From positions 390,001 to 422,000 of the forward strand of contig OY970322.1 in NCBI GenBank assembly GCA_963716945.1: 32,000 nucleotides of DNA, given 5' to 3'. Origin of the DNA: Candidatus Saccharimonadota bacterium. Lineage in GTDB: Bacteria > Patescibacteriota > Saccharimonadia > Saccharimonadales > UBA4665. Below the pieces are notes generated by a model. The model was not told the origin of the DNA, did no database searches, and was given only the letters and a program-made list of their open reading frames with translations. A program made the position numbers and the translations under genes. This document shows positions 1-30,462 of the stretch, piece after piece (the stretch's first letter is position 1; the number at the start of each line of letters is the position of its first letter).

Positions 1-2646
1 GATAGCGGCTCCACCAGTAAGAACACCTTGACCTGGTCGGCGGTGACGGGCGCCACGGCTTACATAGTTTACGAGTCGACCAACGGCACGACCTGGTTTT
101 ATAACGAAGTCACTTCCGGCACGACCTCGATAGTTGATAACGGCACTAACTTTACCTGGACAAACTCGGGCACGCCGCCGAGTACCTCGACGACCGGCGG
201 TAACCTGACGGTTGGCGGTACGGTTCTGTTCCAAACCAAAGCCAACTCTACTACCGCTTTCCAAGTCCAAAACGCCGCCGGCAACAACTTCATCCAGGTA
301 GATACCAACGGTGCCAACCTTTATCTTGGTAACACCGGCATCGCCAGCACGATCCAGGTCGGCAACACCACCGGGGCCGTTGCCCAGACTATCGATATCG
401 GCAACAACGCCACCGCCAGCTCTTCGACAACCTTAGTCATCGGTTCGACTGTCGGTACCAGTCCGGTGACTGTCCAGTCCGGTACTTCCGGCACCACTTT
501 CACGCCGGCCGGTGGCAGCTCCAACACCGGCGTGCTGGTAAAACCGGTGTCTAACACCACTGCCGCCTTCCAAGTCCAAAACACCAGTAACGCCGCCGTC
601 CTGAACGTCGACGCGACTAACGGCACCACCACCCTGCAGGTGGCCACCGGCAACGACACGGCCACCCTTGGCGCCAACCTGGCCCCGACCAACTTCAGCA
701 CCGGCTGGACCGGCACCAACTGGACGCTCGCCAGCACCACTGCCGCCCACAACGCCCTGTCCGGCCACACCCAGGCCTTGTCGCCGACCACGCCCTTGGC
801 CACCACCTCCGGCCAGGTCTACCAGATCAGCTACACCATCACCAACCCGACTACCGCCGGCACCAGCCTGACGGTGGCCCTGGGCAGCACTACCATAGCC
901 TTCTACAACTTCGACGCTAACACGGCCGGCACCTACAGCTTCACCGACACCGTCATGGCGACCGCCCCCAGCAATAATGCCAACCTGACCTTCACGCCTG
1001 ATGCCTCCGGCCTGTTCACCGGCACCATATCGGCCGTTTCGGTCCAACTGGTGACCCAAAGCACCCACCCGGCTCTGGTAGTCGACAACGCTTCCGGCAA
1101 CCCCAACGTCCAGCTGCGGGCCAGTTCCGACACCCACAGCCTGCTCTTAGGCTTTGACGCCGGCGAATCCAACAGCAGCGGCACCAACAACACCGCCGTC
1201 GGTACCTATAGCTTGCAGGACAACGGCAGCGGTTCCTCCAACGTCGCCGTCGGTACCTTCGCTCTCCAGAATAACGCTTCCGGCAACGACAACAGCGCCT
1301 TGGGCTACGAGGCTCTCCAGTTCAACACTTCCGGCGGCCAGAACACGGCTATCGGCTACAATACTCTCAGCAGCAACACCACCGGCAGTTACAACGTGGC
1401 TGTCGGCAGCAACGGCCTGGCGTCCAACACCTTAGGCTACTCCAACACCGCCGTCGGCATAGCCACCTTGCAGAACAACACCACCGGCTCCGGCAACATA
1501 GCCCTGGGCAACAACACCTTGGAGAACAACACCACCGGCAACGGCAACATCGGCATCGGCGGCCTGGGCGATAACACTACCGGCAGTAACAACGTCGCTA
1601 TCGGCGGCCTGGGCAGCAACAATGGTTACTCCAACGTCGCTGTTGGTACCTTCAGCCTATACAACAGCACCGGCGTCAGCAACGACACAGCCATCGGTTA
1701 CCAGGCTTTGCAAAACGACGTCGGCGGCAGCTACAACGTCGGCCTGGGCTACGGCGCCAACGTGCTCAACGGCAGCCTGAACCTTAGCGGCGCCGACGCC
1801 ATCGGGGCCGGCACTCAAGTCGGTGCCAGCAATACCACTATCCTGGGCTACGGCCTTGCCAACGGCGCCAACCAGGCCGTCGGCATCGGCACGTCCTTCG
1901 CCCCCAACGAACTGACGGTCAGCCCGCAGACTTACGGCACCAACGGCACCGTAGGCAGCGGCACGACCATCACCCAGGGCAGCGGCTCCGGTACGGTTAC
2001 CGGCTCGGGAACGGCCTGGACTACCGGCATGGTCGGCGGTACCATCTACTACAGCGACGGCAGTACCGGCACGATCACGGCCGTAAGTTCGGGCACCAGC
2101 CTGACCAGCAGCAACACCACCGGCGGCTGGAGTTCGGCTACTTACAACATCGTCTGGGGCGGCTTCAACGTCAGCAACAGCGATACAGTGCTGCTGCAGC
2201 CGACTAGTAACTCTACTACGGCGTTTCAGATTAAGAACAACACCGGCGGTTTGCTGGTAGCGGCCGATACGACTAACATGACGCTGACCATAGACGGCCA
2301 CATCATCACCGGCAACGGCAATGGCGCTACGACCACGGCCACGCTTAACGGTAACGCCGGTACGGGCGGCAGCCCGAGCTGTACCGTCAGCGGTGACGAC
2401 ACCAGCGGTCAGATTACCCTCAAGACGGGCAGCACCAGCGGTTGGGCGGCCGGCATCCAGTGTACGATTAACTTCGGCACCAGCTACGCCAGCGCGCCGC
2501 ACCCGGTCCTGACCCCGGCCAGTAGCCAAGATGTCAGCGCCGTCAAACCGTACGTTACATCGGGCACGGGCAGTTTCACCGTCAGCTTCATCACCGCCGA
2601 TAACGCCCAGCACACTTACGTCTGGAATTACTTCAACGCCCAATAA
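1..2646 (+). CDS. Giant surface fibre protein, paralog A; only the 3' 881 codons are in the window (5' end lies upstream)
   Basis: Frame +1 is open from nt 1 (DSGSTSKNT precedes the track's TTG at 28). Stop is TAA at 2644-2646. Contains an FN3-like 'LTWSAVTGATAYIVYES' and a recurring module junction 'TTAFQVQN..G....VDT'. Also has a CBM/jelly-roll-like block and ~190 aa of 'NTA.G..AL..NT.G..N' repeats in YadA-head/Hep_Hag or phage tail-fibre style. The C-terminal ~115-aa domain ends TYVWNYFNAQ and is shared with three other ORFs. Confidence 0.9.
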   Translation, partial: DSGSTSKNTLTWSAVTGATAYIVYESTNGTTWFYNEVTSGTTSIVDNGTNFTWTNSGTPPSTSTTGGNLTVGGTVLFQTKANSTTAFQVQNAAGNNFIQVDTNGANLYLGNTGIASTIQVGNTTGAVAQTIDIGNNATASSSTTLVIGSTVGTSPVTVQSGTSGTTFTPAGGSSNTGVLVKPVSNTTAAFQVQNTSNAAVLNVDATNGTTTLQVATGNDTATLGANLAPTNFSTGWTGTNWTLASTTAAHNALSGHTQALSPTTPLATTSGQVYQISYTITNPTTAGTSLTVALGSTTIAFYNFDANTAGTYSFTDTVMATAPSNNANLTFTPDASGLFTGTISAVSVQLVTQSTHPALVVDNASGNPNVQLRASSDTHSLLLGFDAGESNSSGTNNTAVGTYSLQDNGSGSSNVAVGTFALQNNASGNDNSALGYEALQFNTSGGQNTAIGYNTLSSNTTGSYNVAVGSNGLASNTLGYSNTAVGIATLQNNTTGSGNIALGNNTLENNTTGNGNIGIGGLGDNTTGSNNVAIGGLGSNNGYSNVAVGTFSLYNSTGVSNDTAIGYQALQNDVGGSYNVGLGYGANVLNGSLNLSGADAIGAGTQVGASNTTILGYGLANGANQAVGIGTSFAPNELTVSPQTYGTNGTVGSGTTITQGSGSGTVTGSGTAWTTGMVGGTIYYSDGSTGTITAVSSGTSLTSSNTTGGWSSATYNIVWGGFNVSNSDTVLLQPTSNSTTAFQIKNNTGGLLVAADTTNMTLTIDGHIITGNGNGATTTATLNGNAGTGGSPSCTVSGDDTSGQITLKTGSTSGWAAGIQCTINFGTSYASAPHPVLTPASSQDVSAVKPYVTSGTGSFTVSFITADNAQHTYVWNYFNAQ
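647..1058 (+). repeat. 412-bp tract 100% identical to 21864-22275 in giant C
   Basis: Line-by-line comparison of the two stretches found no mismatch. The antisense track ORFs 668-871 and 21885-22088 translate identically. The tract encodes the CBM-like block GNDTATLGANLAPTNFSTGWTGTNW...ISAVSVQLVTQ. Confidence 0.95.
1651..2213 (+). repeat. 563-bp tract 100% identical to 22868-23430 in giant C, at the same 21217-nt offset
   Basis: Compared block by block (ttcagcctatacaacagcacc ... ccgactagtaactc). Identity ends at 2213/23430. Confidence 0.95.
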
Positions 2647-2728
2647 CCGTCTGCTAGCGCTTAAAACCGCTCTCCGCCGCTGCAAATCATAGCTTAGTAA
2701 GGGAGTGCTTGGTATAATCGTAAGCAAC

Positions 2729-3727: not shown

Positions 3728-6700
3728 ATGGCAGACCAAAACGAAAGCTTATCCCTTGTCTACGAAGGCTCCTCGGTCGACTCGAGCTTGGAGACGCAAA
3801 GCGAGCCCCAGTTTAAGGCTAACCCGCCGCCTGAATACGAACAGGCGCCCAGACGCCTGTCATCCAGACGCAACCGCCGCAAGCTGCTTATAGTCAATAT
3901 CATCATACTCCTCCTTATTATCATAATAGGGCTGGTCAGCTTTTTCCTCTCTTCCGGCCCCAGGGCCACTAACGCCTCAACCAACCACAAGCTGGTTAGT
4001 TATGCCGCCTCTTCCTTGCCGGTCCAGAACATTCAGCCCAACCAGGCGCTCCAGGTTAGCGAAGCCAACCAGCTGTCCATCAACGGCCAGGTAACTATCG
4101 GTAACACCCTGGTCTTAGCCCCGACCGCTACCCCGACTACCCCGGTTACCGGTCAGATATATTACAACCAGTCTGACAATACGCCTTATTACTACGACGG
4201 TACGCGGTTTGTCAGTTTGGCGTCAGGAGCGGGATTGCAGACTACGGCCCAGAATGCCCCACAGCAGTTCGTGGCCTCCATTGGCGGCAGCAGCGGCTCT
4301 ATCGGCATCGGCAGTGGGCTGGCTCTAAGTGGTGGCGAGCTGCTAGTGCGACTGCAGGCCGGTCCGGGCATAACGGTGAACGGTTCGACGGTCTCCAGTA
4401 GCGGGGTTATCAGCTTGACGGCCGGCAGCTCGAACGTGTTCATTACCCAGGACGGCAAGGGCAACTACACGGTCAGCGACCATATAGCCAACCTGATTAC
4501 CGGCGGCGGTACTACCGGCCAAATTGCGCTTTTCAGCGGCAGCCAAGCCGTTGGCGATTCGATACTGGGACAAGCCGGCGCCAGCCTGACCGTCGCCGGT
4601 TCCTTCGTTGTCCAAAGCGCGGCGTCAGCCGCCTCACTGGCGGTCGCCAACGCTATTTCGGGTGGCACGCTTAGCGTAGCCGGCGGCAAACTGGCGGTGG
4701 ACGGTTCTGGTAATCTGACCCTGCAATCGGGCAGCACGATTTATGCTAATAACCTGGTTCAAACTGACAGTACCCAGCCGGTATCGATTAACGCCGGTGC
4801 TAAGCAGCTTGAATTCACCGCCAACGGCATCAACTTCACGCTCCCTAGTTCCGGCGGATCGACGCAAGTAATCTGCACGACCGGTATCAGTTGCGCTTCC
4901 GGCGGCGGCCAGGCGATTCTGCTGGCACCCAATGACAGCGCTTCGCCGACGGCGCACCCAACCGCACAAACTAACACCGCCGGCGACTTACCGTCGATTT
5001 TTATCAATAACACCGGCGGGGCCAACCTGTTGGAGCTGCAAGGCGACGGCGCGGACACTTTTGTCGTCGGCCAAAGCGGTGACACGGTTATCGCCGGTAC
5101 GCTCGCGGTCCAATCCGCCAATAGCCTGAGCCTCGGTACACCGGGGCCGGCCGGCAATAACGGTTCGGTCAGTTTTGCTAATGCCGCTGGCTTACATACC
5201 GTGACCTTGCAGGCACCAGTGACTGACCCGGCCAGTGATTTGATCTTTACTCTGCCGGCCAGCGACGGTGCCTCGGGTAATTGTATTAAAACTGATGGTA
5301 ACGGCAATCTCAGCTTTGGTAGCTGTGCTAGCGGCAGCGGTGCCACGGCCATTGGAGCGATTGACTCTCAGTCTAAGTCGCTTAATGGTGGCGTTATAAG
5401 CGGAACTAACCTTTATTTACAGTCGGCTGACGCTAATTTCCCCGGCTTAATAACTACTGGTAGCCAGACTCTGGCCGGCGATAAGTCCTTTAACGGTGAT
5501 ATTACTCTGTCCGGCACCGGCACCGGCCTGAGCGTTACTAACTCGGTTACTATCGGCACTGGCCTGACTGTGGCTGCCGGAGGTTTGACTGTCAGTGCCG
5601 GCACGGTTACCTTCAGCGGGCTTAATACGGCGGGCATTGTTACTAATACGTCCGCTGGCGTACTGGGGACAGTTGCTATTATTGGAGTTGGTAACGGCGG
5701 CACCGGTGCAGGCAGCTTTACGTCCGACGGTATCTTGTATGGCAACTCCGGGGGTATTATCCAGGTTACCGGCGCGGCCGCTAGCTCTATACTGGCCACT
5801 AACGCCAGCGATTTGCCGGGCTTGACCCAGACCTTGCCGTCAGCTGTCCAAGGCAACATTACCGCTACTGGTGCTTTGGCCGCCGGTTCTATCGCTTCGA
5901 CGTTTGGTAGTATCTCGACAGCCAGTAATATCCAGACCACGGCAACGGTCCAGGGTACCACGGTTACGGCTACGGGTGCTTTGCAAGGCAACTCCCTCAG
6001 TGTCAATGGCGGCGTGTTTGCTGTTAATAATACTGGGGCCATTACGGCCGCGACAGGTATCAGTTCTTCTGGCACGATCACCTTTAGCGGCCTGGGCACG
6101 GGCATACTGCAAGCCAGCGCCGGCGTGATCGGCCTTTATGGCGGCGGCCTGGTAGCCGGCGTGAAGGACGAGGCCGGAACCAGCCGCGGCGGTACTATAA
6201 CCCTTAACAACGTCACGTTTGGGATCGGAGGGGCCGCCAGCACCCTTACGATCGACACCGCCGACGCCACGCATAACGGGCTAGTTACTAACGGCGTCCA
6301 AACTATTGCTGGAGCCAAGACGTTAAGCGCCAACTTGACGCTGCAAGCCAGCCCGACGGCCTTGACCATTAACGGGCCGCCCAGCGGTACCACGTCCCTG
6401 ATCCAGCTTGGCTCGGCGCTTGGCACCGGCGTCGGCAGCAACATTAACTCCAACGGTACTTTCATCGGCCTTGACGCGGCTAGCGGCAGCAGCGCCGATT
6501 TACTGAATTTTCAGGCTAATGGTGTCAGCGACCTCCGGGTCGACAGTTCGGGCAATGTTTTTACGGCCGGAAACGTTACTGCCAGCGGCAGCCTCGCCGT
6601 CGTGTCGTCCAGCGGAAACACGGTCTCGTTACTAGCACCAAGCGGACTGGCCGCGGCTTCGACACTGACTTTGCCCAGCACTAACTATGGCAGCGCCGGC

Positions 6701-9700
6701 GACTGTCTCAAGCTGGCTTCCGGCAGCAGCGGCAATAACGGCGTTATAGATTTCGAAAACTGTCTCGGGGAACCCGGCGGTCCGCCGACCGGAGCGGCCG
6801 TAATACTGAACGCCGACCCGGTGGGTGGAACCGCCGGCCAGCAGCTCCAAGCGGCCTTTAACATTCAAAGCGCCGCTTACACGACCGGTAACGTCATCGA
6901 GGAGGGGCCGAGCGTTGCCGGGACGGCAGCTAACCTCTTGCAATTAGAGAATAACAGCGGCGTACAGACCTCGGCTTTCTGCCCCAACGGCAGCGAACTG
7001 TTGCTTAACCAGGCACCGAATACCTTTTGTTCGACCGCGAACGGTACCAGCGGCACGCCGTACGCCATAACGATCGGGACTGGTTCTAGCGCCCTGGCTG
7101 GCATTAACTTCGGCGGCGACAGCCAGATTTATCGTTCGGCCGCCAACACCTTCACCTTTGGGTCGGCAGCTTCGAGTCAAACGCTCCAGATATCGGCTAA
7201 TACCACCAACGGCTCGCCGGGCGGCTCGCTGACAATCCAGGGCGGTGCCGCTACGGGCCTGGTCAGCGGCGGCAACATAGTCTTGCAGGTATCACCGCCG
7301 CCGACCGCCGGTACGATTAGAAACTTTATAACCGGCCTGCTAGGGGCCACCGACGTTGCCGAGGACGGTACTTACCTATGGTGGACTACTGGCAGTACCG
7401 TGGGCCGCGCGACCCTTAACGGAAGCAGTACGCCAACCCACATCATCCCGAACTATTTCACGCTTGAAACCAAGCTCAACTACCTCGCGAGCGACGGCAA
7501 TTTCGTTTATATCTCGACTGGAGGTCGTACTATCGACAGGTTCACCATTACCAAAAATAATACTATCCCCACGTTTAGCCAAGGCAGTAACTACTGGCAA
7601 AATTATATCTGTTTGAGCAACGGGACCGTCAGTACCAGTAACGCTTCTTGCCCTAACGGCGGCGGCGACAACCTGCAAGGCCTGGCCTATGATTCTAGCA
7701 ACAAAATCATGTACTGGGCGGACAGGAGTGAAATAGGCGACTACAACACGGTTACTCTGACAGCTACCAACAACTGGTTCGTCACGAGCGGTTTGAGCAC
7801 TACCGGCTGTGGCAGCAACGGTTCCATGAACTCCGTGGGGGTCGATTCTATCAACAACATGATTTACTGGTTCTCGACGACCTGTACTGATATCGGCCAG
7901 GCCAATCTGCCCTCGGGCAATGCCGCGCCTACCAGCATCACGCCGGCCTGGTTTTCGCTTGTCGGCCAGGCCCAGGGCTCCCCATCCAGCATCCAGGGCT
8001 TGACTAGTGATGGAACTAACCTGTACTGGTCTAACATCAACAAAGACAGCATCGGCGACGTCAACATAGCCAGTGTCGCGGCGAACATGGCCAACCCGTC
8101 GAATCCGATCCTGGCTAACAGTAACCTGATATCCAATATCGGCTCGGGTACCGGCAATGGACCGCAGGGCATAGCCGTCAGCCTCACGCCTGGTTACCTG
8201 TATTGGACCCAACCAGTCGGGTCGCCGGGTTACATAGGCCGCGCCCTGGTATTAGCCACCCAGCCCAATCCCGAGCAGACGGTCTTTCAGCTAAGTGGTA
8301 CCGACGGCTCGGCACAGTTTAAGGACGCCGTCGATACTACTTCTAGCTTCCAGGTGCAGGACGCTAACGGGGCCGCGGTCTTCAACGTCGATACTCTTGA
8401 TAACGTCAGTAGCCTGGCCGGGCAATTCACGGCTGCCGGCGGCGTAACCGCCAGCGGCCTAAGCACACCGGCGGCGCCCACGATTACGCCGAACGTCCTC
8501 AATACCTGCTTGAGTTCCTCGACTACTTATACCTACGAGATCAGCGCTATTAACAGTAAGGGCGGTTCGACACCGGCCTCGGCCTTAGGTAGCACGACTT
8601 CGGGCTGCTCGTCGCTTGATACTGCGGGCGATAACATCAGCATTACCTGGACGGCCGTGCCGGGCGCTTACGGCTACAATGTTTACAGGGTAAGCAGCCC
8701 GTACACGGCTGGTTTGATCGGAACCGTGCTTACGGCTGGCGGCAGCCTATCCCTTACCGACACTGGCAACACCACACCGGTTATTTCCGCTACTGCGCCG
8801 CCAGTCAGCGACACCTCCGGCCAGCTGGCCACTTCTGGTGGCGGTGGTCTTTTGATCCAGGACGCCAGCAATACCAGCATTTTCAACGTTACTGCCGGCA
8901 GTACCTTGGCCGGGCTGGTCGCCAATGGCGATTTTGAGAGCCGCGGAACCGGGGGCTGGTTGGTGAAAAGTACCTCGTCTACCTCCACCACAGCTCTCTC
9001 AGCCGTTAATACCCAGGCGTGGGAAGGCCTTTATTCCATGAAAATAGCGGCTTCGGCCCTGGCCAATGACGGTGCCTACTACACCACCTCGTCGCCTATG
9101 GTTAGTTCGACGCAGTACACCTTGAGTTTTTACGCTAGAACCGGAAGCGGCACTATCAGTGACTTGGACGCCGGATACGAAGTGCAGGCGACGGCCACCG
9201 GGACGGGCACGGTGACTTCTACGGATACTAACTGTACCTTGTCAGCTAACTCCGTAAGCACGACCTGGACCCGATACACCTGTACGTTCACAACCGGCAC
9301 TATAACCCAAAACGGCAGTACCACCAGCACGACCAATATCTATATTAATAAGACCGGCAGCTCGGCGGAAACGTTTTACGTCGACGCCGTGCAGCTCCAG
9401 ACTGGCGGTTCGGCGACGGCTTTCAACAGCGGCAATACCATACAGATTAATGGAACTGTCAACACGGCCGTCCTCTTCCAGAACGGCCTTGATTCCACGA
9501 CCGCCTTCCAGGTTCAGAACGCGGCCGGCACGAGCAAGGTATTTGACGTTGACACCTTAGACGGCCGAGTTGGCGTTGGCACCAATGCCCCGGGTAACTT
9601 ATTGAGTATCGGCGCGTTGACGACGGCAGCCGGTACTTACCAGATAGCTGTCACTACCGGTGGCTCGGCTAATAGTGGTATTGTCGTCCAAACGGTGCTC

Positions 9701-10162
9701 GGGCAGAGCGGGGGGAACGTTTTCCAGGCCCAAGACTCGACTGGCGCTGCCCTAGCTACTATAGATTACCAAGGTAATTTGACGGTCAAGGCGGCGACCA
9801 TTAACGGTACGCTAACGGTCAACGGCCATCTTATAACTGGGTCGGCAGCGCCCACGCTGCCTACCGCCCAGACCGCCGCCGGTAGTGCTAATGGCGGTAC
9901 TTGCAGTATCAGCGCCGGTAATGACACCTCGGGCACGATTAGCGTTACGACCGGCAGCGCCGGCGTCACTACGGGAGCGTGGTGCACTTTTACCATTAGT
10001 TTCACTACGGCGCCGCGACCGGTGGTATCGGGTACTACCCAGGCTAGCGCCGCACTCCAGCCATATATGAGCGCGACGCCTACCGCCTTTAGCTTTGGCA
10101 TAGCCGGCGGAACGCCCGGCACCAGTACCACTTACACCTTTAATTACTTCAATGCCCAATAG
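3728..10162 (+). CDS. Giant N-terminally anchored surface fibre protein, paralog B (2144 aa)
   Basis: ATG start and TAG stop, with no in-frame stop over 6.4 kb. Acidic/Pro-rich cytoplasmic N-tail, basic cluster RRNRRK, then TM helix LLIVNIIILLLIIIIGLVSFFL (about nt 3881-3955). Tail-fibre-like 'GQIYYNQSDNTPYYYDGTRFVSL'. Long G/S/T/A/N beta-helix-like tracts. Six YW-type propeller blades (about 7350-8250). FN3-like 'ISITWTAVPGAYGYNVYR' (about 8465-8780). CBM4_9-like 'NGDFESRGTGGW...YTLSFYAR...FYVDAVQLQ' (about 8905-9405). The C-terminal shared domain ends TYTFNYFNAQ. Confidence 0.93.
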   Translation: MADQNESLSLVYEGSSVDSSLETQSEPQFKANPPPEYEQAPRRLSSRRNRRKLLIVNIIILLLIIIIGLVSFFLSSGPRATNASTNHKLVSYAASSLPVQNIQPNQALQVSEANQLSINGQVTIGNTLVLAPTATPTTPVTGQIYYNQSDNTPYYYDGTRFVSLASGAGLQTTAQNAPQQFVASIGGSSGSIGIGSGLALSGGELLVRLQAGPGITVNGSTVSSSGVISLTAGSSNVFITQDGKGNYTVSDHIANLITGGGTTGQIALFSGSQAVGDSILGQAGASLTVAGSFVVQSAASAASLAVANAISGGTLSVAGGKLAVDGSGNLTLQSGSTIYANNLVQTDSTQPVSINAGAKQLEFTANGINFTLPSSGGSTQVICTTGISCASGGGQAILLAPNDSASPTAHPTAQTNTAGDLPSIFINNTGGANLLELQGDGADTFVVGQSGDTVIAGTLAVQSANSLSLGTPGPAGNNGSVSFANAAGLHTVTLQAPVTDPASDLIFTLPASDGASGNCIKTDGNGNLSFGSCASGSGATAIGAIDSQSKSLNGGVISGTNLYLQSADANFPGLITTGSQTLAGDKSFNGDITLSGTGTGLSVTNSVTIGTGLTVAAGGLTVSAGTVTFSGLNTAGIVTNTSAGVLGTVAIIGVGNGGTGAGSFTSDGILYGNSGGIIQVTGAAASSILATNASDLPGLTQTLPSAVQGNITATGALAAGSIASTFGSISTASNIQTTATVQGTTVTATGALQGNSLSVNGGVFAVNNTGAITAATGISSSGTITFSGLGTGILQASAGVIGLYGGGLVAGVKDEAGTSRGGTITLNNVTFGIGGAASTLTIDTADATHNGLVTNGVQTIAGAKTLSANLTLQASPTALTINGPPSGTTSLIQLGSALGTGVGSNINSNGTFIGLDAASGSSADLLNFQANGVSDLRVDSSGNVFTAGNVTASGSLAVVSSSGNTVSLLAPSGLAAASTLTLPSTNYGSAGDCLKLASGSSGNNGVIDFENCLGEPGGPPTGAAVILNADPVGGTAGQQLQAAFNIQSAAYTTGNVIEEGPSVAGTAANLLQLENNSGVQTSAFCPNGSELLLNQAPNTFCSTANGTSGTPYAITIGTGSSALAGINFGGDSQIYRSAANTFTFGSAASSQTLQISANTTNGSPGGSLTIQGGAATGLVSGGNIVLQVSPPPTAGTIRNFITGLLGATDVAEDGTYLWWTTGSTVGRATLNGSSTPTHIIPNYFTLETKLNYLASDGNFVYISTGGRTIDRFTITKNNTIPTFSQGSNYWQNYICLSNGTVSTSNASCPNGGGDNLQGLAYDSSNKIMYWADRSEIGDYNTVTLTATNNWFVTSGLSTTGCGSNGSMNSVGVDSINNMIYWFSTTCTDIGQANLPSGNAAPTSITPAWFSLVGQAQGSPSSIQGLTSDGTNLYWSNINKDSIGDVNIASVAANMANPSNPILANSNLISNIGSGTGNGPQGIAVSLTPGYLYWTQPVGSPGYIGRALVLATQPNPEQTVFQLSGTDGSAQFKDAVDTTSSFQVQDANGAAVFNVDTLDNVSSLAGQFTAAGGVTASGLSTPAAPTITPNVLNTCLSSSTTYTYEISAINSKGGSTPASALGSTTSGCSSLDTAGDNISITWTAVPGAYGYNVYRVSSPYTAGLIGTVLTAGGSLSLTDTGNTTPVISATAPPVSDTSGQLATSGGGGLLIQDASNTSIFNVTAGSTLAGLVANGDFESRGTGGWLVKSTSSTSTTALSAVNTQAWEGLYSMKIAASALANDGAYYTTSSPMVSSTQYTLSFYARTGSGTISDLDAGYEVQATATGTGTVTSTDTNCTLSANSVSTTWTRYTCTFTTGTITQNGSTTSTTNIYINKTGSSAETFYVDAVQLQTGGSATAFNSGNTIQINGTVNTAVLFQNGLDSTTAFQVQNAAGTSKVFDVDTLDGRVGVGTNAPGNLLSIGALTTAAGTYQIAVTTGGSANSGIVVQTVLGQSGGNVFQAQDSTGAALATIDYQGNLTVKAATINGTLTVNGHLITGSAAPTLPTAQTAAGSANGGTCSISAGNDTSGTISVTTGSAGVTTGAWCTFTISFTTAPRPVVSGTTQASAALQPYMSATPTAFSFGIAGGTPGTSTTYTFNYFNAQ

Positions 10163-11039: not shown

Positions 11040-12023
11040 TTAATCGACGACGAAATAATCGAAACCAAAAGACGTGCCGGCCGGCGGGGCGGTCGAGTCA
11101 CAGACGGTGAAGTTGCTAGTGGTACGGTTGACATAATAACTTAAGCCGCCGGCACTAGAACCGACCGGCGTCAATAGGACATGCGGCGTGGCGTTGTACT
11201 TGGCTGTGAAATCAACGGTTATGAAACAGCCGGCCGCCGGGCCGCTGCCGGTATTGATAGTGATCGAACCGCTGGTATCGCTGCCCGACACGCTGGAAGT
11301 GCCGCCATTACCGAGGGCGCTGCCGTTGGTCCGGCCGGGCGTGCCGCCGCCGACGGTAATGTGGTGGGTCAGTACCAGGTCGCCGTTTAGCTGCAAACTG
11401 CCGGTAGTAAGTTGTGGTGCTGACAACGTTCCGCCGAAAGTTCCGCTGCCGCTAACCTGTAAGCTCTTAGCTATAGTGACCGCGCCTTGGAGGCTGGTGG
11501 TACCGGCGACGGCTAGGTTTTTGCTGACTTGGGCCTGGCCGAACTGGGCGCTGCCGGCAACCGTAACATCGTTTAGGCCCAAAGTGCCGCCGATTTGCAA
11601 GCCGCCGGCGACCTGCAAGTCTTGTCGCATCAGTACTTTACCGGCGAAAATGGCGCTGCTCTGGACATTCAGCACCTGGCTCGAATTACCGACCGTAGCG
11701 TCACTGTCGGCCAGTTGCTGGAGAGTGCTTTGGGATAAACTTTGGGACGAAACGCTGGAGCTGCCTGAATTATGCCTGCTATCGTTGTAGGCGACGAGAA
11801 CGATCCCGGCCGCCACGGCCAATAATAATATGAACAGCAGGAAATAAATATTAACCCGCTTGGCTATGCCGCGGCGCTTCTTCTTGGGCGGCGGCGAGAC
11901 CGAAGGCCCGGGCTCCAGGGTGGTTTCGGGCGGCGCCGGTTTGCCGTTGAGTTCGGGCGGGGGACTCTCCAGCGAAGCTTCCTGGGGGTCTGCTGCTAAC
12001 GGTTCAGATCGGTCCGAGTCCAT
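11040..12023 (-). CDS. Miniature member (327 aa) of the fibre family: cytoplasmic Pro-rich tail, TM anchor, short beta-helix stalk and the shared C-terminal domain
   Basis: ATG at 12023 and TAA at 11040-11042. KKKRRGIAKR followed by TM VNIYFLLFILLLAVAAGIVLVAY, the same topology as giant B. Stalk repeats 'LQVAGGLQIGGTLGLNDVTVAGSAQFG' resemble the pre-terminal stalk of giant C. The C-terminus 'SGSDTSGSITINTGS...YNATPHVLLTP...FGFDYFVVD' aligns with the ends of A, B and C. Confidence 0.85.
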   Translation of the reverse strand: MDSDRSEPLAADPQEASLESPPPELNGKPAPPETTLEPGPSVSPPPKKKRRGIAKRVNIYFLLFILLLAVAAGIVLVAYNDSRHNSGSSSVSSQSLSQSTLQQLADSDATVGNSSQVLNVQSSAIFAGKVLMRQDLQVAGGLQIGGTLGLNDVTVAGSAQFGQAQVSKNLAVAGTTSLQGAVTIAKSLQVSGSGTFGGTLSAPQLTTGSLQLNGDLVLTHHITVGGGTPGRTNGSALGNGGTSSVSGSDTSGSITINTGSGPAAGCFITVDFTAKYNATPHVLLTPVGSSAGGLSYYVNRTTSNFTVCDSTAPPAGTSFGFDYFVVD

Positions 12024-13558: not shown

Positions 13559-13658
13559 CTAATTATTAAATTGATTCTTAGTCTTGCTAATGCTAGTCTA
13601 GTATTGTAAAGAGCCTCGTGAGGGCACATTAACTGATACGAAATAAAGAGTGCGGCGG

Positions 13659-14972: not shown

Positions 14973-14990
14973 CCGGTATTTAGCGCTAGC

Positions 14991-15002
14991 TGTGGATAAC
15001 TT
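14991..15002 (+). promoter_or_regulatory. 12-mer TGTGGATAACTT, whose first 9 nt are the reverse complement of the DnaA-box consensus TTATCCACA; identical copy at 19470-19481
   Basis: Exact string read at both places. Both copies lie 19-29 nt after a stop codon in AT-rich intergenic DNA, upstream of S2 and giant C respectively. Confidence 0.5.
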
Positions 15003-15108
15003 TTGGTATTTGCATAATCTTTTTGTTGTTGCATCTAAGTACTTATGCTATATTGACGGGGAGAAGGCCCTTTAAGCCGCCAAATAATATAAAAATAATA
15101 ATTAAATT

Positions 15109-16428: not shown

Positions 16429-16435
16429 CCGGCCT

Positions 16436-17482: not shown

Positions 17483-17524
17483 AAATACTTTATCTCACTA
17501 ATATAAAATGATACACTTACGCTG

Positions 17525-18547: not shown

Positions 18548-18550
18548 GAC

Positions 18551-19777: not shown

Positions 19778-22700
19778 ATGTACGAAACTGCTCCGCGAGG
19801 GCATATCGCGTCCGAACGTACCCATGGGCTACGGGCTAAGAGGGTAATTTTTGCCGTTGGTGGCAGCTTGCTGGCCCCGACGGTGTTTTTATATACGCGC
19901 GCGTACGCGCGTATTAACAAGCTGCGTACCCGCGGTTTCATTCTGGCCATTGTGGCGCTGGCCCTGTTAACTTCGGTCGGCCTGAGTTTGTTGAGGCCGG
20001 CCCAAACCGTTGCCGCCACTGACAGCAGTATCAACTTCCAGGCCCGGTTGGAAACCAACACCGGTGCGATCGTGCCTGACGGCTGGTACAACATTGAGTT
20101 CAAGATGTATAGCGTTTCCAGCGGCGGCAGCCCCGAGTGGACCGAAGACTACACTTGGAACAATGGCAGTGCCAACTGTACTACACCCGTTTTCCAGGCT
20201 ACCGGCGACTGCCGCGTCAAGGTGGTTAACGGCTACCTGACGGTTAATCTGGGCTCGATTACCAGTTTCCCGGGCACGATTAACTGGGACCAGCAGCAGT
20301 GGGTGACGATGAACATCGGCGGTACCGGCGGCAGCGGTTCTTTCCCCGGCATCGGCGACGGCGAAATGAACCCCCGTTTGCAGCTAACCGGTGTACCGTA
20401 CTCCTTCCGGTCAGGGCAGGCTGGCGGCTTGTTCGATCCGGCTGGCACTGGCGCGGCTCTAAGCTGGATTACCCAAACCGCCGCCAACGTGCTGCAGCTA
20501 CCTAACGAAGGCGGAACATTGTGTATCGACGGTGACACTAGTGGTTGTGGTTTTGCTCCGGGTACCGGAGGCGCGGGTTATATCCAGAACCAGAATGCTT
20601 CGGCCCAAACTACCTCCAACTTCTGGATTAGCGGTAGCGGCCAGGCTACTACTTCGTTCATAGCGCCGACTTATACCGGGGGCGGCGCGGTCGCCGTATC
20701 CTCCGGGGGGACTAATACCAATTTGACCCTTACGGCCAACGGTACCGGGACGGCTAGCCTAGATACGGGGGCTAACGGCGGCACGGTATCCGTAGCTTTG
20801 ACGGCCGGCACGTTAAACCTGGCAAATTCTGCCAGCGCCACGACTATTAACATCGGCAACACGTCCGGCGCTACCGGTATTACCGAGCGCGTCGGTACCG
20901 GCAACTACAGCCTGGACGGTGTCGCCGGCTCCACCTACAGCCTGGGCGCTTCCACGACCACGGGTACTATCCTAATTGGCGGCACGGCTCAGACCGGCAG
21001 CATCACCCTGGGCAGCTCTTCCGGCACTAACTCCGTCCTAATAGGCAACGGTGCCGGGGCTACGACCGTCAACATCGCCAACACCGAAACCGGCGGTGCC
21101 GTCAACATCGGTACGGCTATGACTACCGGCACGGTCTCCATTGGCGGTACCGGCGCCCAGACTGGCACCATTAGCCTGGGTATCGGTACCGGCGTCCAGA
21201 CGATTAACCTGGCCACTGGCGGTACCGGCGCCAAGACCGTCACGGTCGGTTCGGCCGCTTCCACTTCGTCATTACTGCTACAATCCGGTACCGGCAACTT
21301 GTCCCTGCAGACCCAGGGCACCGGCACCTTAGGCGTTGGCAACAATGCCGTGGCGCAGAACCTGGCCATCGGCAATGCTACGGGGGCTACGACCGTGTCG
21401 GTCCTATGCGGTACGGGCATCTGTGGCTTCGGGAATAACGCTACCAGCCATAGTACTAGTATCGGGTCCGGTACAGGTGTTAGCGCTTTGACTCTTCAGG
21501 GCGGCACCGGTGGCGCCTCACTGGATTCTGGCACGGGCAGCATAACAATCGGTAACAGTGCCAACAACAAGACCATCACAATCGGTGCCAGTGGGAGCAC
21601 GGCCAATACTACGACCGTCAATATCGCTACTTCTACAGGTGCCTCTCAGACGGTCAATATCGGCTCGAACTCTGGCACCAGTCCCGTCACCATAGGTAGC
21701 GGCACCAGCGGTATCACGCTTAACCCGTCAGGCGGCAGTTCCAACCAGGGCGTCCTGGTCAAGCCTGACGCCGACACGACCGCTGCCTTCCAGATTCAAA
21801 GGGCCGGCAGTAGCACCGACCTGCTCAACGCCGATACTGCCAATATGACGCTGACTGTCCAAGCCGGCAACGACACGGCCACCCTTGGCGCCAACCTGGC
21901 CCCGACCAACTTCAGCACCGGCTGGACCGGCACCAACTGGACGCTCGCCAGCACCACTGCCGCCCACAACGCCCTGTCCGGCCACACCCAGGCCTTGTCG
22001 CCGACCACGCCCTTGGCCACCACCTCCGGCCAGGTCTACCAGATCAGCTACACCATCACCAACCCGACTACCGCCGGCACCAGCCTGACGGTGGCCCTGG
22101 GCAGCACTACCATAGCCTTCTACAACTTCGACGCTAACACGGCCGGCACCTACAGCTTCACCGACACCGTCATGGCGACCGCCCCCAGCAATAATGCCAA
22201 CCTGACCTTCACGCCTGATGCCTCCGGCCTGTTCACCGGCACCATATCGGCCGTTTCGGTCCAACTGGTGACCCAGAACACTGACCCAGTTCTAGTAGTT
22301 AACAACGCCTCTGCCGTTGACGACCTAGAAGTCCGGGCCAGCAGCAGTACTACCAACCTCTTCGTCGGTCTCAGTGCGGGAGCGTCAAACGCCACCGGTA
22401 TCGACAATCTGGCGCTGGGCAACAACGCTTTCCAGTACAACACTGGCGGCAGTACCAACCTGGCTATTGGCGCTGATGCCCTCCAGTACAACACCACCGG
22501 CAACGACAACAGCGCCTTGGGCTACGAGGCTCTCCAGTTCAACACTTCCGGCGGCCAGAACACGGCCCTGGGTTCCGGCGCTCTCAGCGACAATACGATC
22601 GGCAGTTACAACGTGGCTGTAGGCGGCAACTCGCTCCAGTACAACAGTTCGGGCTACTCCAACACCGCCGTCGGCATAGCCACCTTGCAGAACAACACCA

Positions 22701-25700
22701 CCGGCTCCGGCAACTTGGCCATCGGCAATAACGCCCTTGGCGGCAACACCACCGGCAACAACAACATCGGCATCGGTGGCCTGGGCGTCAACAGCACCGG
22801 TTCGTTTAACGTCGGCATCGGCAGCTTGCGCGAGAACAACGGCAACGCCAACGTCGGCATCGGCGTCTTCAGCCTATACAACAGCACCGGCGTCAGCAAC
22901 GACACAGCCATCGGTTACCAGGCTTTGCAAAACGACGTCGGCGGCAGCTACAACGTCGGCCTGGGCTACGGCGCCAACGTGCTCAACGGCAGCCTGAACC
23001 TTAGCGGCGCCGACGCCATCGGGGCCGGCACTCAAGTCGGTGCCAGCAATACCACTATCCTGGGCTACGGCCTTGCCAACGGCGCCAACCAGGCCGTCGG
23101 CATCGGCACGTCCTTCGCCCCCAACGAACTGACGGTCAGCCCGCAGACTTACGGCACCAACGGCACCGTAGGCAGCGGCACGACCATCACCCAGGGCAGC
23201 GGCTCCGGTACGGTTACCGGCTCGGGAACGGCCTGGACTACCGGCATGGTCGGCGGTACCATCTACTACAGCGACGGCAGTACCGGCACGATCACGGCCG
23301 TAAGTTCGGGCACCAGCCTGACCAGCAGCAACACCACCGGCGGCTGGAGTTCGGCTACTTACAACATCGTCTGGGGCGGCTTCAACGTCAGCAACAGCGA
23401 TACAGTGCTGCTGCAGCCGACTAGTAACTCCAATAAGGCGTTTCAGGTACAAAACAATCTAGGCACGACACTCTTAAACGTAGATACGTCCGGTAATACT
23501 CTTAGTCTCGGCGTCACTGGCAGTACGGCTATCGCCAGTACGATAAACATTGCCAACACCACCGGCAACGCCACCCAAACCATCAACATCGGTGCCACGA
23601 ATGCTGCCGGCAACACCGTCCTGATACAGGGAGGTACAGGTACGGGTGTTTCTCTCCAGGTAGCGGCCAGCGGGACGATTGCGGTCGGCACAACAGTTCA
23701 AACCAGCACTCTAGATCTTGGCAACACCAGCGCCTCCTCTACAACCCTGATTAATGGCGGCACCGGCGCCAGCGCCATATCCTTACAAGCCGGTGCCGGC
23801 GGAACGATCTTGCTTGGCACAAGCGGCTCTACGGCCAACGCGACTACTGTAGATATAGCTAACACCACCGGCAACGCCACCCAAACCATCAACATCGGTG
23901 CCACAAATGCTGCCGGCAACACCGTCCTGATACAGGGCGGTACAGGTACAGGCGTCTCCATCCAGGTCGCCGGTACGGGCACAATTGCTATTGGTACTAC
24001 CAACGCCGACACCGTCAGCCTCGGTGCTGTTGGCAGTACAGCCAATGCCACTACCGTCAACATTGCTAACACTACTGGTGCTGCTATCCAGACGGTTAAC
24101 CTAGGTTCGCTCTCCAGCACTTCGCTTACTAAGATCCAAGGTGGTACCAGTGCTTCGGCTATAATCTTGCAATCAGGTAACGGGAGCACGATTACAATAG
24201 GCAGCCAGACTGCCAGCACCACTAACGCCATAATTATAGGTGCTTCCGCGGCTACTGCGAACGCCGACAACATAAGCATTGATAACACCAGCGGTACCAA
24301 TGCCGGCACTATCACCATCGGCGGCAGCGGCACTGCCACAGGTGCCATAACGCTTGGCCAGTCCACCGGCTCCCAAACGGTTAATGTCGGTGTTGGTGCA
24401 CCCGCAGCGGGAGCAACTCAAACAATTAAGATAGGTACGACTGTTTCTGCTACTACCGGCACTACTGCGATTACGATTGGCGGCACTAGTACAACCACAA
24501 ACGGCGCCACTAGCGTTAGTATCCTGGCCGGCAACCACTCCGGCTCGACTGTCGCTAATGGTTCCAGGACTACTACCGACACGGACTCTACGGGTATCAA
24601 AGTATCGCTTGGTGATATGACAAGTAGTATTGGACTCTGTATTGGTGGCTTGCTTACCGGGGTGGCCCCAACTTCCGGTACTGCCTACGAGCTAGTTGAC
24701 TGTAATAATACTCCCACCGCTGACTATGCCGAGGAATATCCGGTCGCGGCAGGTGTAGGCGTTGGCGATGTCGTAGCTACCGGCACCCAAATGGTTAACA
24801 CATATGATACTGATGGTCCTAACGGGTCGGTTGACTGGAGTACAGTGAAAGGCCAGATTACCCAGCTAGTTCAATCTGATCAGGCTTACCAGTCGAACGC
24901 TATCGGTATTGTTTCGGATAACAACTCCGATTTCAGCTCTACTGGTTACAATATCAAGGCTGAAGACAACCCCATGTCCGTCGCCTTAAACGGCCGTGTT
25001 CCGGTGAATGTTACTACTGAGAATGGACCAATTGAACCTGGTGATTATCTAACTACTTCGGCTACTATTCCAGGCTATGCCATGAAAGCCACCCAAGCTG
25101 GCTATGTTATTGGCCGCGCTTTGAGCTCATACGACGGTTCCGGACCGGGTCAAGTAATGGTCTTCGTCGGTGATGGCTACTATCCTGGACCTGATGCCAG
25201 CAGCTACCTGCAACAAGACAGTGACGCTAACCTGGCAAGCCTTTCTGTAAACGGGAACACACTACTTTCTAACCTAGACGTAACCGGCGACAGTACCCTA
25301 AGCGATCTAAACGTCAGCGGACCCACAACCCTGAATGGCCTGACCGTAACCGGCGACGCCAACGTCCAGGGCAACCTGACGGTAGCAGGCAACGCCACGA
25401 TCGGCGGCTCGCTAACCGTAACCGGCCTGACCAGTGTGGCGGACCTGGAGGTCAGCGGCCACATAATTACCTCGGGCGGGGAACCGACGTCCCAGATTCA
25501 GGCCGCGGCCGGCAGCGACGCGGTTGTCAGCATCGCCGGCACCGATACCACCGGCACGATAAGCATTACCACCGGTAGCAACCCGACATCCGGCTCGCTA
25601 GCCGATATCCTCTTCAGCAAAGCCTACGGCGCCGCGCCGCACATAGTCCTCAGCCCGTCCAATAACAATGCCGCCGGCCTGCGCTACTTCAAGGGCACGA

Positions 25701-25786
25701 CGACCACCAACGACTTCATGTTCAACGTCATCGACAACCCGGCCCCGAACACGACCTACCAGTACGACTACTTCATTGGCCAGTAG
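19778..25786 (+). CDS. Giant surface fibre protein, paralog C (2002 aa)
   Basis: ATG start and TAG stop. Signal/anchor GFILAIVALALLTSVGLSLL..AQTVAA|TD. Long '..T.NI(A/G)....G..QT(I/V)N(I/L)G' beta-helix-like repeats. A CBM-like block and Hep_Hag-like repeats are shared with A. A tandem-repeat insert (23431-24560) is followed by a beta-barrel-like module 'ADYAEEYPV...GPIEPGDYLTTSATIPGYAMKATQAGYVIGRAL'. A stalk of 'L.V.G' heptad-like units precedes the C-terminal shared domain, which ends TYQYDYFIGQ. Confidence 0.93.
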   Translation: MYETAPRGHIASERTHGLRAKRVIFAVGGSLLAPTVFLYTRAYARINKLRTRGFILAIVALALLTSVGLSLLRPAQTVAATDSSINFQARLETNTGAIVPDGWYNIEFKMYSVSSGGSPEWTEDYTWNNGSANCTTPVFQATGDCRVKVVNGYLTVNLGSITSFPGTINWDQQQWVTMNIGGTGGSGSFPGIGDGEMNPRLQLTGVPYSFRSGQAGGLFDPAGTGAALSWITQTAANVLQLPNEGGTLCIDGDTSGCGFAPGTGGAGYIQNQNASAQTTSNFWISGSGQATTSFIAPTYTGGGAVAVSSGGTNTNLTLTANGTGTASLDTGANGGTVSVALTAGTLNLANSASATTINIGNTSGATGITERVGTGNYSLDGVAGSTYSLGASTTTGTILIGGTAQTGSITLGSSSGTNSVLIGNGAGATTVNIANTETGGAVNIGTAMTTGTVSIGGTGAQTGTISLGIGTGVQTINLATGGTGAKTVTVGSAASTSSLLLQSGTGNLSLQTQGTGTLGVGNNAVAQNLAIGNATGATTVSVLCGTGICGFGNNATSHSTSIGSGTGVSALTLQGGTGGASLDSGTGSITIGNSANNKTITIGASGSTANTTTVNIATSTGASQTVNIGSNSGTSPVTIGSGTSGITLNPSGGSSNQGVLVKPDADTTAAFQIQRAGSSTDLLNADTANMTLTVQAGNDTATLGANLAPTNFSTGWTGTNWTLASTTAAHNALSGHTQALSPTTPLATTSGQVYQISYTITNPTTAGTSLTVALGSTTIAFYNFDANTAGTYSFTDTVMATAPSNNANLTFTPDASGLFTGTISAVSVQLVTQNTDPVLVVNNASAVDDLEVRASSSTTNLFVGLSAGASNATGIDNLALGNNAFQYNTGGSTNLAIGADALQYNTTGNDNSALGYEALQFNTSGGQNTALGSGALSDNTIGSYNVAVGGNSLQYNSSGYSNTAVGIATLQNNTTGSGNLAIGNNALGGNTTGNNNIGIGGLGVNSTGSFNVGIGSLRENNGNANVGIGVFSLYNSTGVSNDTAIGYQALQNDVGGSYNVGLGYGANVLNGSLNLSGADAIGAGTQVGASNTTILGYGLANGANQAVGIGTSFAPNELTVSPQTYGTNGTVGSGTTITQGSGSGTVTGSGTAWTTGMVGGTIYYSDGSTGTITAVSSGTSLTSSNTTGGWSSATYNIVWGGFNVSNSDTVLLQPTSNSNKAFQVQNNLGTTLLNVDTSGNTLSLGVTGSTAIASTINIANTTGNATQTINIGATNAAGNTVLIQGGTGTGVSLQVAASGTIAVGTTVQTSTLDLGNTSASSTTLINGGTGASAISLQAGAGGTILLGTSGSTANATTVDIANTTGNATQTINIGATNAAGNTVLIQGGTGTGVSIQVAGTGTIAIGTTNADTVSLGAVGSTANATTVNIANTTGAAIQTVNLGSLSSTSLTKIQGGTSASAIILQSGNGSTITIGSQTASTTNAIIIGASAATANADNISIDNTSGTNAGTITIGGSGTATGAITLGQSTGSQTVNVGVGAPAAGATQTIKIGTTVSATTGTTAITIGGTSTTTNGATSVSILAGNHSGSTVANGSRTTTDTDSTGIKVSLGDMTSSIGLCIGGLLTGVAPTSGTAYELVDCNNTPTADYAEEYPVAAGVGVGDVVATGTQMVNTYDTDGPNGSVDWSTVKGQITQLVQSDQAYQSNAIGIVSDNNSDFSSTGYNIKAEDNPMSVALNGRVPVNVTTENGPIEPGDYLTTSATIPGYAMKATQAGYVIGRALSSYDGSGPGQVMVFVGDGYYPGPDASSYLQQDSDANLASLSVNGNTLLSNLDVTGDSTLSDLNVSGPTTLNGLTVTGDANVQGNLTVAGNATIGGSLTVTGLTSVADLEVSGHIITSGGEPTSQIQAAAGSDAVVSIAGTDTTGTISITTGSNPTSGSLADILFSKAYGAAPHIVLSPSNNNAAGLRYFKGTTTTNDFMFNVIDNPAPNTTYQYDYFIGQ
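21864..22275 (+). repeat. Partner copy of 647-1058 (100% identical)
   Basis: See 647-1058. The offset is 21217 nt. Confidence 0.95.
22868..23430 (+). repeat. Partner copy of 1651-2213 (100% identical)
   Basis: See 1651-2213. The offset is the same 21217 nt. Confidence 0.95.
23555..23956 (+). repeat. In-frame tandem repeat with a 306-nt (102-aa) period inside giant C
   Basis: aacaccaccggcaacgccacccaaaccatcaacatcggtgccac... at 23555 recurs at 23861. The first 44 nt are identical, then one mismatch, then 32 identical nt. The peptide IANTTGNATQTINIGATNAAGNTVLIQGGTGTGVS is repeated, and a third, more diverged unit follows (NIANTTGAAIQTVNLG...). Confidence 0.85.
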
Positions 25787-26920: not shown

Positions 26921-30104
<3,184 letters not shown>

Positions 30105-30452: not shown

Positions 30453-30462
30453 ATTTTGAAGA

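Follow-up and report, generated by a model that had tools for sequence, protein, structure and literature searches.

Four proteins encoded within one short stretch of a Saccharibacteria genome end in the same small domain, which raises the question of what this domain does and why it sits at the very end of each protein. The stretch covers positions 390,001 to 422,000 of the forward strand of contig OY970322.1 (assembly GCA_963716945.1) from a Candidatus Saccharimonadota bacterium, and all 32,000 nucleotides of it are referred to here as the window. The four proteins are designated A, B, C and D, and their common end is designated the tip domain. Based on the evidence set out below, we hold with moderate confidence that the tip domain is divergent but H-type-lectin-like and forms the receptor-binding head of N-terminally anchored fibres. 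It would probably bind glycans of the host envelope, with the different tip classes serving as interchangeable specificity modules. Cultured Saccharibacteria grow on Actinobacteria (PMC10633639), and beyond type IV pili the means by which ultrasmall, epibiotic members of the Patescibacteria locate a host and stay attached to it are largely obscure (PMC12206443, PMC10633639).

The tip domain in the window

A preliminary description of the window had reported a shared C-terminal block on proteins A, B, C and D, and translations, alignments, BLASTP and a six-frame search with a profile hidden Markov model (HMM) all bear this out. The four copies are as follows.

2284..2643, plus strand: tip domain of protein A; A/B subtype, ending ...NYFNAQ, with a Cys38/Cys65 pair and the stop codon at 2644-2646
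9809..10159, plus strand: tip domain of protein B; A/B subtype, from translation, alignment and HMM
25445..25783, plus strand: tip domain of protein C; C subtype, ending ...DYFIGQ, without Cys
11043..11396, minus strand: tip domain of protein D; D subtype, ending ...DYFVVD, with a Cys63/Cys106 pair

When the HMM is run against the six-frame translation of the window (about 58% G+C), it finds exactly these four copies, with domain E-values from 2e-35 to 3e-61. Each copy is about 110-115 aa long and runs to a stop codon. In MAFFT alignments the tips of B, C and D are 31-39% identical to that of A, and a His, the G-x-D-T-x-G and T-G-S motifs, an F, a P, a further F and the Y-F positions are invariant across all four. 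BLASTP of tip against tip with composition adjustment gives E-values of 7e-8 for A and C, 2e-17 for A and D, and 2e-10 for B and D. The spans first given for A and D stand, while the starts given for B (9808) and C (25444) were one base out of frame and are corrected to 9809 and 25445. The proposed motif GH(I/L)IT fails for D, which reads 'LTHHIT', and only its His, the sole residue in common, is retained. A Cys pair in A and B and its absence from C were described correctly, and D possesses another Cys pair.

Size, distribution and subtypes of the family

A profile search of 1.84 billion cluster representatives (50% identity) returns 5,078 matches at E<=1e-3 and 1,761 at E<=1e-10. Proteins that carry the tip domain are between 131 and 3,132 aa long, and the match reaches the last residues of the protein in 150 of 150 cases among the matches listed. 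The tip domain is C-terminal and present in a single copy in 193 of the 194 members checked, the exception being a fragment, and all 82 genomic matches stop 0-2 residues short of the stop codon. A Gln or Asp is conserved at the final position. Named family members belong to Candidatus Saccharimonadales or Patescibacteria. The species genomes of GTDB were scanned with a D-type sub-alignment, which biases the genomic sample towards D orthologues, and yielded 80 loci with identities of up to 76%, nearly all of them in metagenome-assembled genomes of Saccharibacteria/Saccharimonadales. Two further labels appear among these genomes, Nevskiaceae (L041) and Candidatus Babeliales (L063), each with a D-type match at 54-59% identity, and mis-binning seems a likelier explanation than true occurrence in those taxa.

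Pfam, NCBIfam and PHROGs contain no significant match to the tip domain (none below E 0.1 in PHROGs), and a sequence search of the PDB with the four-copy profile gave only chance antibody matches (E>0.2). The tip domain is a large sequence family that is unannotated in current profile libraries.

The cysteines divide the family. Among 189 members, Cys38 and Cys65 occur together in 43 of 44 cases and Cys63 and Cys106 in 42 of 44, the two pairs are never found together, and neither pair is present in 104 members. This pattern indicates two putative alternative disulfides that are mutually exclusive, and at least three tip subtypes; covarying Cys pairs would also fit an extracellular folded domain. 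The subtypes have characteristic C-termini, '...NYFNAQ' for A/B, '...DYFIAQ' for C and '...DY.V.D' for D, and each of the three has close relatives in other genomes.

Predicted fold and structural neighbours

AlphaFold2 models the last 125 residues of A, given with a 38-sequence alignment, as eight beta-strands with a predicted local distance difference test (pLDDT) score of 90.6 and a predicted template modelling (pTM) score of 0.82, and the pLDDT falls below 70 only in the first ~20 residues, the neck. In the model of residues 95-327 of D, the pLDDT is 60-76 for the beta-helix stalk, ~50 for the neck and 86-94 for the tip. The tip domain is predicted to be a self-contained beta-sandwich of ~105 residues preceded by a short neck. 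The expectation that it would prove to be a folded domain and not a sorting signal agrees with the pLDDT of 90.6 and with the lack of a match to any sorting or anchoring family of Pfam or NCBIfam.

Foldseek matches no PDB structure to the tip model at E<=1e-3. The top PDB matches are the C-terminal domains of the tailspikes phi297 gp61 and LKA1 gp49 (probability 0.93-0.96, TMq 0.41-0.48), and further matches are the R1 and R2 pyocin fibres, Helix pomatia agglutinin (HPA) and discoidin II. The solved feet among the top matches (4RU4, 4RU5, 6CL5 and 6CL6) reach a TMq of only 0.39-0.48 at probabilities of 0.51-0.96, and, taking this model and that of D together, scores are weak for 2cgy (probability 0.44, TM 0.34/0.41), 2ce6 (0.72, TMt 0.43) and 2vme (0.44). 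The stalk-plus-tip model of D matches the phi297 tailspike at E 2.4e-4 and also retrieves the pyocin feet, HPA (probability 0.72) and discoidin II. Over both models, the probabilities are 0.87-0.96 for the phi297 and LKA1 C-terminal domains and 0.44-0.72 for HPA. The best matches in BFVD are two uncultured Caudovirales proteins (TM 0.74-0.75, 27-31% identity), which are homologues of the tip domain, and viral proteins labelled 'H-type lectin domain' in that database match with probability 1.0, TM 0.47-0.59 and a root-mean-square deviation of 3.5. The pyocin foot, AP22 gp53, the C-terminal domains of LKA1 and phi297, HPA, discoidin I/II and an octocoral lectin have been assigned to one jellyroll 'discoidin-like / lectin' class, whose members sit distally on fibres and bind sugars via the variable distal loops L1, L3 and L5 (PMC6363177, PMC5701251).

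The preliminary description had suspected a likeness to H-type lectins, and this is supported by in-register matches to the Pfam family H_lectin (PF09458), by hhalign and by the Foldseek matches to HPA, discoidin II and the feet, though all of the H-lectin scores are sub-threshold. None of the four window proteins matches PF09458 at E<=0.1. The best family member (P0041) scores 22.2 bits (E 1.6e-4), below the gathering cut-off of 24 bits. At E<=1, PF09458 is found in 23 of 97 members (best 3.6e-4), in register, and is the second most frequent family in that scan; a homologue from Curtobacterium phage JoyLin, described below, matches at E 0.13 in the same register as P0041. When the family alignment is compared in hhalign with an H-lectin alignment, the probability is 47.7% (E 1.9e-4, 39 columns), but the H-lectin alignment is very shallow, having only four sequences since the HPA-seeded search for homologues gave only three snail proteins. 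The comparison with HPA alone gives a probability of 10% in an unchanged register, which places 'tItF..y...P.vvltP' of the family on 'NITFASPYCRPPVVLLS' of HPA, whose query sequence was checked against 2CCV/2CGY. The tip domain is read here as a remote relative of the H-type-lectin/foot class and not as a demonstrable member of the Pfam family.

Homologues at the ends of phage fibres

Homologues of the tip domain end real phage fibres, which fits the analogy with tail fibres drawn at the outset. Contig L081 of IMG/VR (63% G+C) encodes a 784-aa protein whose N-terminus matches Mtd_N and many tail-fibre PHROGs and whose last ~100 residues match the tip domain at E 1e-29. The gene is located between minor-tail-protein genes and two lysins. 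The LysA of this contig has 60% identity to its counterpart in Mycobacterium phage Aminay (tblastn), and 1,316 of the 1,494 matching phage records are from Mycobacterium phages. In Curtobacterium phage JoyLin, gp10 (named 'minor tail protein') is a tailspike with a pectate-lyase-type beta-helix, and its last 86 residues match the tip domain at 42 bits, ending at the stop codon. The tip module therefore ends genuine receptor-binding proteins of phages of Actinobacteria, to which the hosts of cultured Saccharibacteria belong (PMC10633639), with the caveats that such examples are few and that actinophages are over-represented in phage collections.

A search seeded with the L081 tip also retrieves standalone proteins of ~142 aa. 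One of these is encoded at 8001-8429 of a 48.6-kb contig (L086, JGI 3300045020) and consists of 142 aa with little beyond the tip domain. Its gene is found among small early-type genes with WhiB and YqaJ, outside any tail module. The contig looks like an actinophage genome, and the protein would be a soluble lectin-like phage protein.

Carrier proteins and their anchoring

The proteins that carry the four tips are as follows.

1..2646, plus strand: protein A; cut by the 5' end of the window, with its frame open from base 1; body common with C
3728..10162, plus strand: protein B, 2144 aa; N-terminal cytoplasmic tail, transmembrane segment (RRNRRKLLIVNIIILLLIIIIGLVSFFL), repetitive stalk, YWTD-like repeats, CBM_4_9, tip
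19778..25786, plus strand: protein C, 2002 aa; N-terminal hydrophobic anchor or signal, long Gly/Thr-rich repetitive stalk, hexad beta-helix rungs, tip
11040..12023, minus strand: protein D, 327 aa; Pro/Glu-rich cytoplasmic tail, transmembrane segment, Ser-rich linker, bactofilin-like beta-helix stalk, 'LTHHI' neck, tip

In protein A the tip comes directly after the junction motif 'NSTTAFQIKNNTGG...', and in protein B, which recurs in public assemblies, the Pfam match to CBM_4_9 covers residues 1730-1873. Protein C, which is identical to family member P0048, has a 'GRVPVNV...GDYLTTS...AMKA' module between its stalk and the hexad beta-helix rungs. The N-termini of B and D consist of a cytoplasmic tail of ~50 residues, a cluster of K/R residues and one strongly hydrophobic segment. 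A positive-inside transmembrane arrangement of this kind is present at the N-terminus of 36 of the 49 large family members that start with Met, and the remaining 13 look like truncated gene models. The K/R-rich stretch and hydrophobic segment of B, C, D and these 36 members thus corroborate the earlier proposal of N-terminal anchoring with a distal tip: since the carriers have a predicted N-terminal positive-inside membrane anchor, the tip domain would be at the distal end.

The ectodomains of the carriers are repetitive beta-helical stalks, and 48 of 97 members have sub-threshold bactofilin-like matches in Pfam. Inserted into the carriers are CBM_4_9, LVIVD, Kelch and YWTD propellers, PA14, pectate-lyase beta-helix, GDSL lipase and Peptidase_S74 modules. 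The hexad 'L.V.G.' runs on into 'L.V.GH I.T.GG' at the neck, and the invariant His is therefore on the last rung of the stalk. A metal-binding HxH trimer neck was considered and rejected, as the His is probably better read as part of that last hexad beta-helix rung.

Possible recombination between carriers and the junction motif

The carriers had been characterized as otherwise very different proteins. This does not hold for A and C, which have the following segments in common.

647..2229, plus strand: body segment of A; 92-98% DNA identity to 21864..23446 of C, which breaks off at the junction motif that precedes the tip
21864..23446, plus strand: body segment of C; near-identical to 647..2229 of A

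The near-identity is made up of two segments totalling ~1.4 kb in a 1.6-kb span, and the flanks and tips are unrelated or only 33% identical. The location of the breakpoint at the junction motif before the tip of A suggests that recent recombination or module shuffling may have taken place between fibre genes. The A/C body and the paralogue duplications are the only long repeats of the window. The possibility that the tips are targets of a diversity-generating retroelement was dropped, as no reverse transcriptase or template repeat turned up, though no dedicated search for such elements was made.

The junction motif, '(S/T)TAFQ(V/I)(Q/K)N..G....(L/F).VDT...', is found at module boundaries, at residues ~87 and ~742 of A (window 28-2646), ~1541, ~1927 and ~1999 of B (3728-10162), and ~671 and ~1222 of C (19778-25786). 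In A, B, several homologues and the fibre of phage contig L081 ('LLELRDEAGSTITVFDYRG'), it stands directly before the tip. The motif may mark a hotspot of recombination or may act as a joint in the structure.

Proposed mechanism and alternative explanations

In the proposed mechanism, the carrier would be inserted into the membrane by its N-terminal signal-anchor in an N-in/C-out orientation, as suggested by the K/R-rich flanks and the single hydrophobic segment. Profile matches and a model of moderate confidence point to an ectodomain that would form a long, repetitive beta-helical stalk, possibly with extra modules (CBM4_9, propellers, enzymes), and the last beta-helix rung ('L.V.GH I.T.GG') would lead into the tip. 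The stalk-proximal end of the tip would hold the conserved His, the G-x-D-T-x-G hairpin, the F69...P77 loop (F...Y...P) and the terminal Gln/Asp. The far end would hold the variable loops at residues ~27-36, 55-61, 84-93 and 108-115 of the 125-aa A fragment, which have the most insertions and deletions. This placement is deduced from strand order and conservation, supposing that consecutive strands alternate in direction. Mean column entropy is highest in the putative distal loops (2.36 bits), compared with 1.95 bits in the strands and 1.67 bits in the proximal loops. The far loop end would correspond to the region where H-type lectins and pyocin feet bind sugars. The ligand of the tip would be a glycan on a cell surface, most plausibly that of the actinobacterial host, and the A/B, C and D subtypes may have different ligands. 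Tips and bodies would be reshuffled by recombination at the conserved junction motif, as the breakpoint observed between A and C suggests. A bolder proposal, which we regard as tentative and rather doubtful, is that Saccharibacteria recognise their actinobacterial hosts by membrane-anchored, tail-fibre-like fibres with interchangeable lectin-like tips homologous to those of actinobacteriophages, and that the recombined set of tips fixes the host range in the manner of phage receptor-binding proteins.

Several observations weigh against a lectin-like receptor-binding head. Every similarity to H-type lectins and feet is below the usual thresholds (under the gathering cut-off in Pfam, under 50% in hhalign), and the TM-scores to solved structures are 0.3-0.48. 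We take the GalNAc-binding residues of HPA to be Asn61, Arg63, Trp83, Tyr89 and His84 of the neighbouring chain. Asn61 and Arg63 (loop L3) are not conserved, as 'QNLRV' falls on the variable 'aa.l.yY' in the hhalign alignment, which stops short of the Trp83-Tyr89 region. One hotspot of insertions and deletions (after residue 96) is at the putative proximal end. Phage examples are few, being confined to 3 IMG/VR contigs and 3 related INPHARED phages, and none of the 50,697 INPHARED phages matched the A or C tip in tblastn. The D orthologues are most conserved at the tip and neck (61-65% identity, versus 18% for the cytoplasmic tail), unlike fast-evolving receptor-binding tips, though part of this conservation may be a bias arising from loci having been found via the tip peptide. 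Finally, the tip stays constant on proteins that otherwise vary greatly and already possess binding modules such as CBM4_9, PA14 and propellers, a pattern typical also of sorting or assembly modules.

It is possible, though unlikely, that the tip is a structural cap or folding nucleus which starts and stabilises folding or oligomerisation of the stalk, without a ligand, and which may even be removed like an intramolecular chaperone. Such a role would accord with the strictly C-terminal, single-copy placement in 193 of 194 members and with conserved residues that cluster not in the variable loops but at the neck, at the GxDTxG hairpin and at the end of the chain. It would also accord with the D orthologues, whose conservation is strongest in tip and neck. 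Tailspikes and fibres often have C-terminal domains that act in this way, and the paper on LKA1 states that such domains may 'stabilize the trimeric' assembly (PMC5701251). Many carriers already have binding modules elsewhere (CBM4_9, PA14), and a few have the chaperone domains Peptidase_S74 or Peptidase_G2; the latter comparison is offset by the fold, which is all-beta and lectin-like in the tip and helical in the S74 chaperone. A single-chain bactofilin-like beta-helix such as that of D, however, needs no trimerisation nucleus, and the standalone 142-aa versions have no stalk to fold. Three subtypes that persist stably from genome to genome and differ in their disulfides and loops would likewise be superfluous for a pure folding cap.

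Improbable in our estimation is that the tip serves the envelope of the cell that makes it, either by targeting cargo to a secretion or attachment system specific to Patescibacteria or by docking non-covalently to its own wall. One constant C-terminal beta-sandwich with a conserved last residue (Gln or Asp), found on thousands of otherwise unrelated surface proteins with enzymes and binding modules, is what brings such a role to mind. The genes for A and B are each followed by a gene for a paralogous membrane protein, and a WxL-like cluster of surface proteins accompanies the D gene in conserved synteny (both described below). The carriers already have an N-terminal membrane anchor, however, and the Pfam and NCBIfam scans (the four proteins and 41 + 97 members) revealed no known sorting or anchoring family, whether of the type IX secretion, WxL, LPXTG or SLH kind. 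Genuine tail-fibre and tailspike proteins of phages, which are neither secreted nor sorted to a wall, end in the tip as well, and the folds nearest to the tip are distal receptor-binding feet. A cytoskeletal function, which follows from the JGI name of the D-type proteins P0001, P0003 and P0008 ('cytoskeletal protein CcmA, bactofilin family'), is scarcely credible. In favour of the name is a sub-threshold Pfam match to Bactofilin in D and in 48 of 97 members, but the score of D (20.1 bits) is under the cut-off (27.9), and the likeness is best explained by common beta-helix repeat geometry. The beta-helix of D follows an N-in transmembrane segment and is thus predicted to be extracellular, and it is attached to a lectin-like tip with covarying Cys pairs and homologues in phage fibres; the name 'bactofilin' is therefore probably misleading.

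Genomic context

The D gene is syntenic across the 80 loci, where it is divergently oriented beside homologues of the genes at 12806-19441 of the window. Of these, g250 is a neighbour in 74 of the 80 loci, g348 in 64, and g340 and g296, for which locus length sets a limit, in 51. Only 2 of the 80 loci have a second tip-bearing gene within 8 kb, and the clustering of four tips in the window is therefore not general. The region at 12806-19441 (plus strand) encodes six secreted or anchored proteins, of which g250, g440, g439 and g348 end in '...Y....(L/F)V..(T/Q)(F/Y)'. A weak match to WxLIP_PGBD/DUF916 (E 1.3e-3) and a C-terminal transmembrane segment are found in g340, and g296 has a PKD domain and a transmembrane segment. 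The cluster resembles a WxL / Csc surface-complex locus of Firmicutes. Its genes g440 (13650-14972, plus strand) and g439 (15109-16428, plus strand) are tandem paralogues with 79% DNA identity over a sampled 300 nt and C-terminal halves that are nearly identical.

Directly 3' of the genes for A and B are the genes for two paralogous membrane proteins (2705-3553 and 10196-11026, both plus strand; E 3e-22). Each of the two proteins has a signal peptide and a ~200-aa ectodomain and ends in a helical hairpin whose loop reads 'AIGRNPLA'. This loop is reminiscent of the loop of the F-ATPase c subunit. In most other Saccharibacteria loci a homologue of these paralogues is immediately upstream of F-ATPase genes, which in one locus (L025) were assigned by Pfam as delta (weak), alpha, gamma and beta, with a putative b by position only that has no match to an ATPase family. 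The ectodomain of the paralogues and the region of protein C before its tip have in common a module of ~60 aa, 'G.V.V.V...G.I..GDYLT.S..PG.AMKA...VIGRA' (E 5e-8).

The 3' end of the window contains genes for 23S rRNA (26923-30104, plus strand) and 5S rRNA (30340-30454, plus strand). Neither a 16S rRNA nor a tRNA was found between the end of the gene next to protein C (26433) and the start of the 23S gene, and ARAGORN found no tRNA in the entire window. The 23S match extends over 3,182 nt versus 2,925 positions in the model, and ~250 nt may be insertions. Open reading frames at 27314-27829 and 28639-29169 (minus strand) are spurious, as they are inside the rRNA.

Comparison with known systems

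Among the largest surface proteins of Saccharibacteria, many have the tip domain at their outer end, and this domain links them, by sequence and fold, to the receptor-binding feet of phages and pyocins. It is a testable candidate for the recognition of host bacteria by the epibiont and a handle for predicting host range from genomes, and its description corrects the misleading 'bactofilin' label of a conserved D-type protein.

With the H-type lectins (PF09458; HPA in 2CCV/2CGY, discoidin I/II, SLL-2) the tip domain appears to have in common a small all-beta sandwich and, in register, the motif F-x3-[YF]-x3-P-x-V-[VL]-x-[ST]P, two strands and a final aromatic-rich strand. It differs from them in ~35 extra N-terminal residues, which comprise the neck and strand 1, and in the invariant G-x-D-T-x-G hairpin. 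Whereas lectins of the HPA type are soluble and hexameric, the tip is strictly C-terminal on membrane-anchored bacterial fibres. The feet of R-type pyocin fibres, AP22 gp53 and LKA1 gp49/phi297 gp61 resemble the predicted tip in being beta-sandwiches with which a fibrous or beta-helical protein ends, and receptor or polysaccharide binding by their variable distal loops has been proposed (PMC6363177, PMC5701251). The true sequence homologues of the tip, in an actinophage tail fibre and the Curtobacterium phage tailspike, occupy the same position. No sequence similarity to the Pseudomonas proteins is detectable, however, and the carriers in the window are cellular proteins of an epibiotic bacterium, anchored in its membrane by their N-termini, and not parts of a virion or tailocin.

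The C-terminal domain of type IX secretion system substrates, WxL and the S-layer homology (SLH) domain are comparable in that each is one conserved, folded C-terminal module on many unrelated surface proteins of a lineage. The tip domain differs in that it matches none of their profiles, is carried by proteins with N-terminal anchors and is found on phage fibres as well. No type IX secretion system is known from Saccharibacteria. Bactofilins (PF04519) are called to mind by the sub-threshold beta-helix repeat matches of the D-type stalk, but the stalk of D is predicted to be extracellular and is capped by a lectin-like tip.

A full-text literature search found no paper that ties H-type lectins to Saccharibacteria, and a transposon sequencing study of Southlakia mentions other lectin-like adhesin domains but not the tip domain (PMC10633639). 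The fold class and its use at the tips of fibres are already known. What is new is a very large unannotated family with a conserved neck, a hairpin and disulfide variants that are peculiar to it, its occurrence on membrane-anchored cellular fibres of Saccharibacteria, and a link at the level of sequence between these fibres and those of actinophages.

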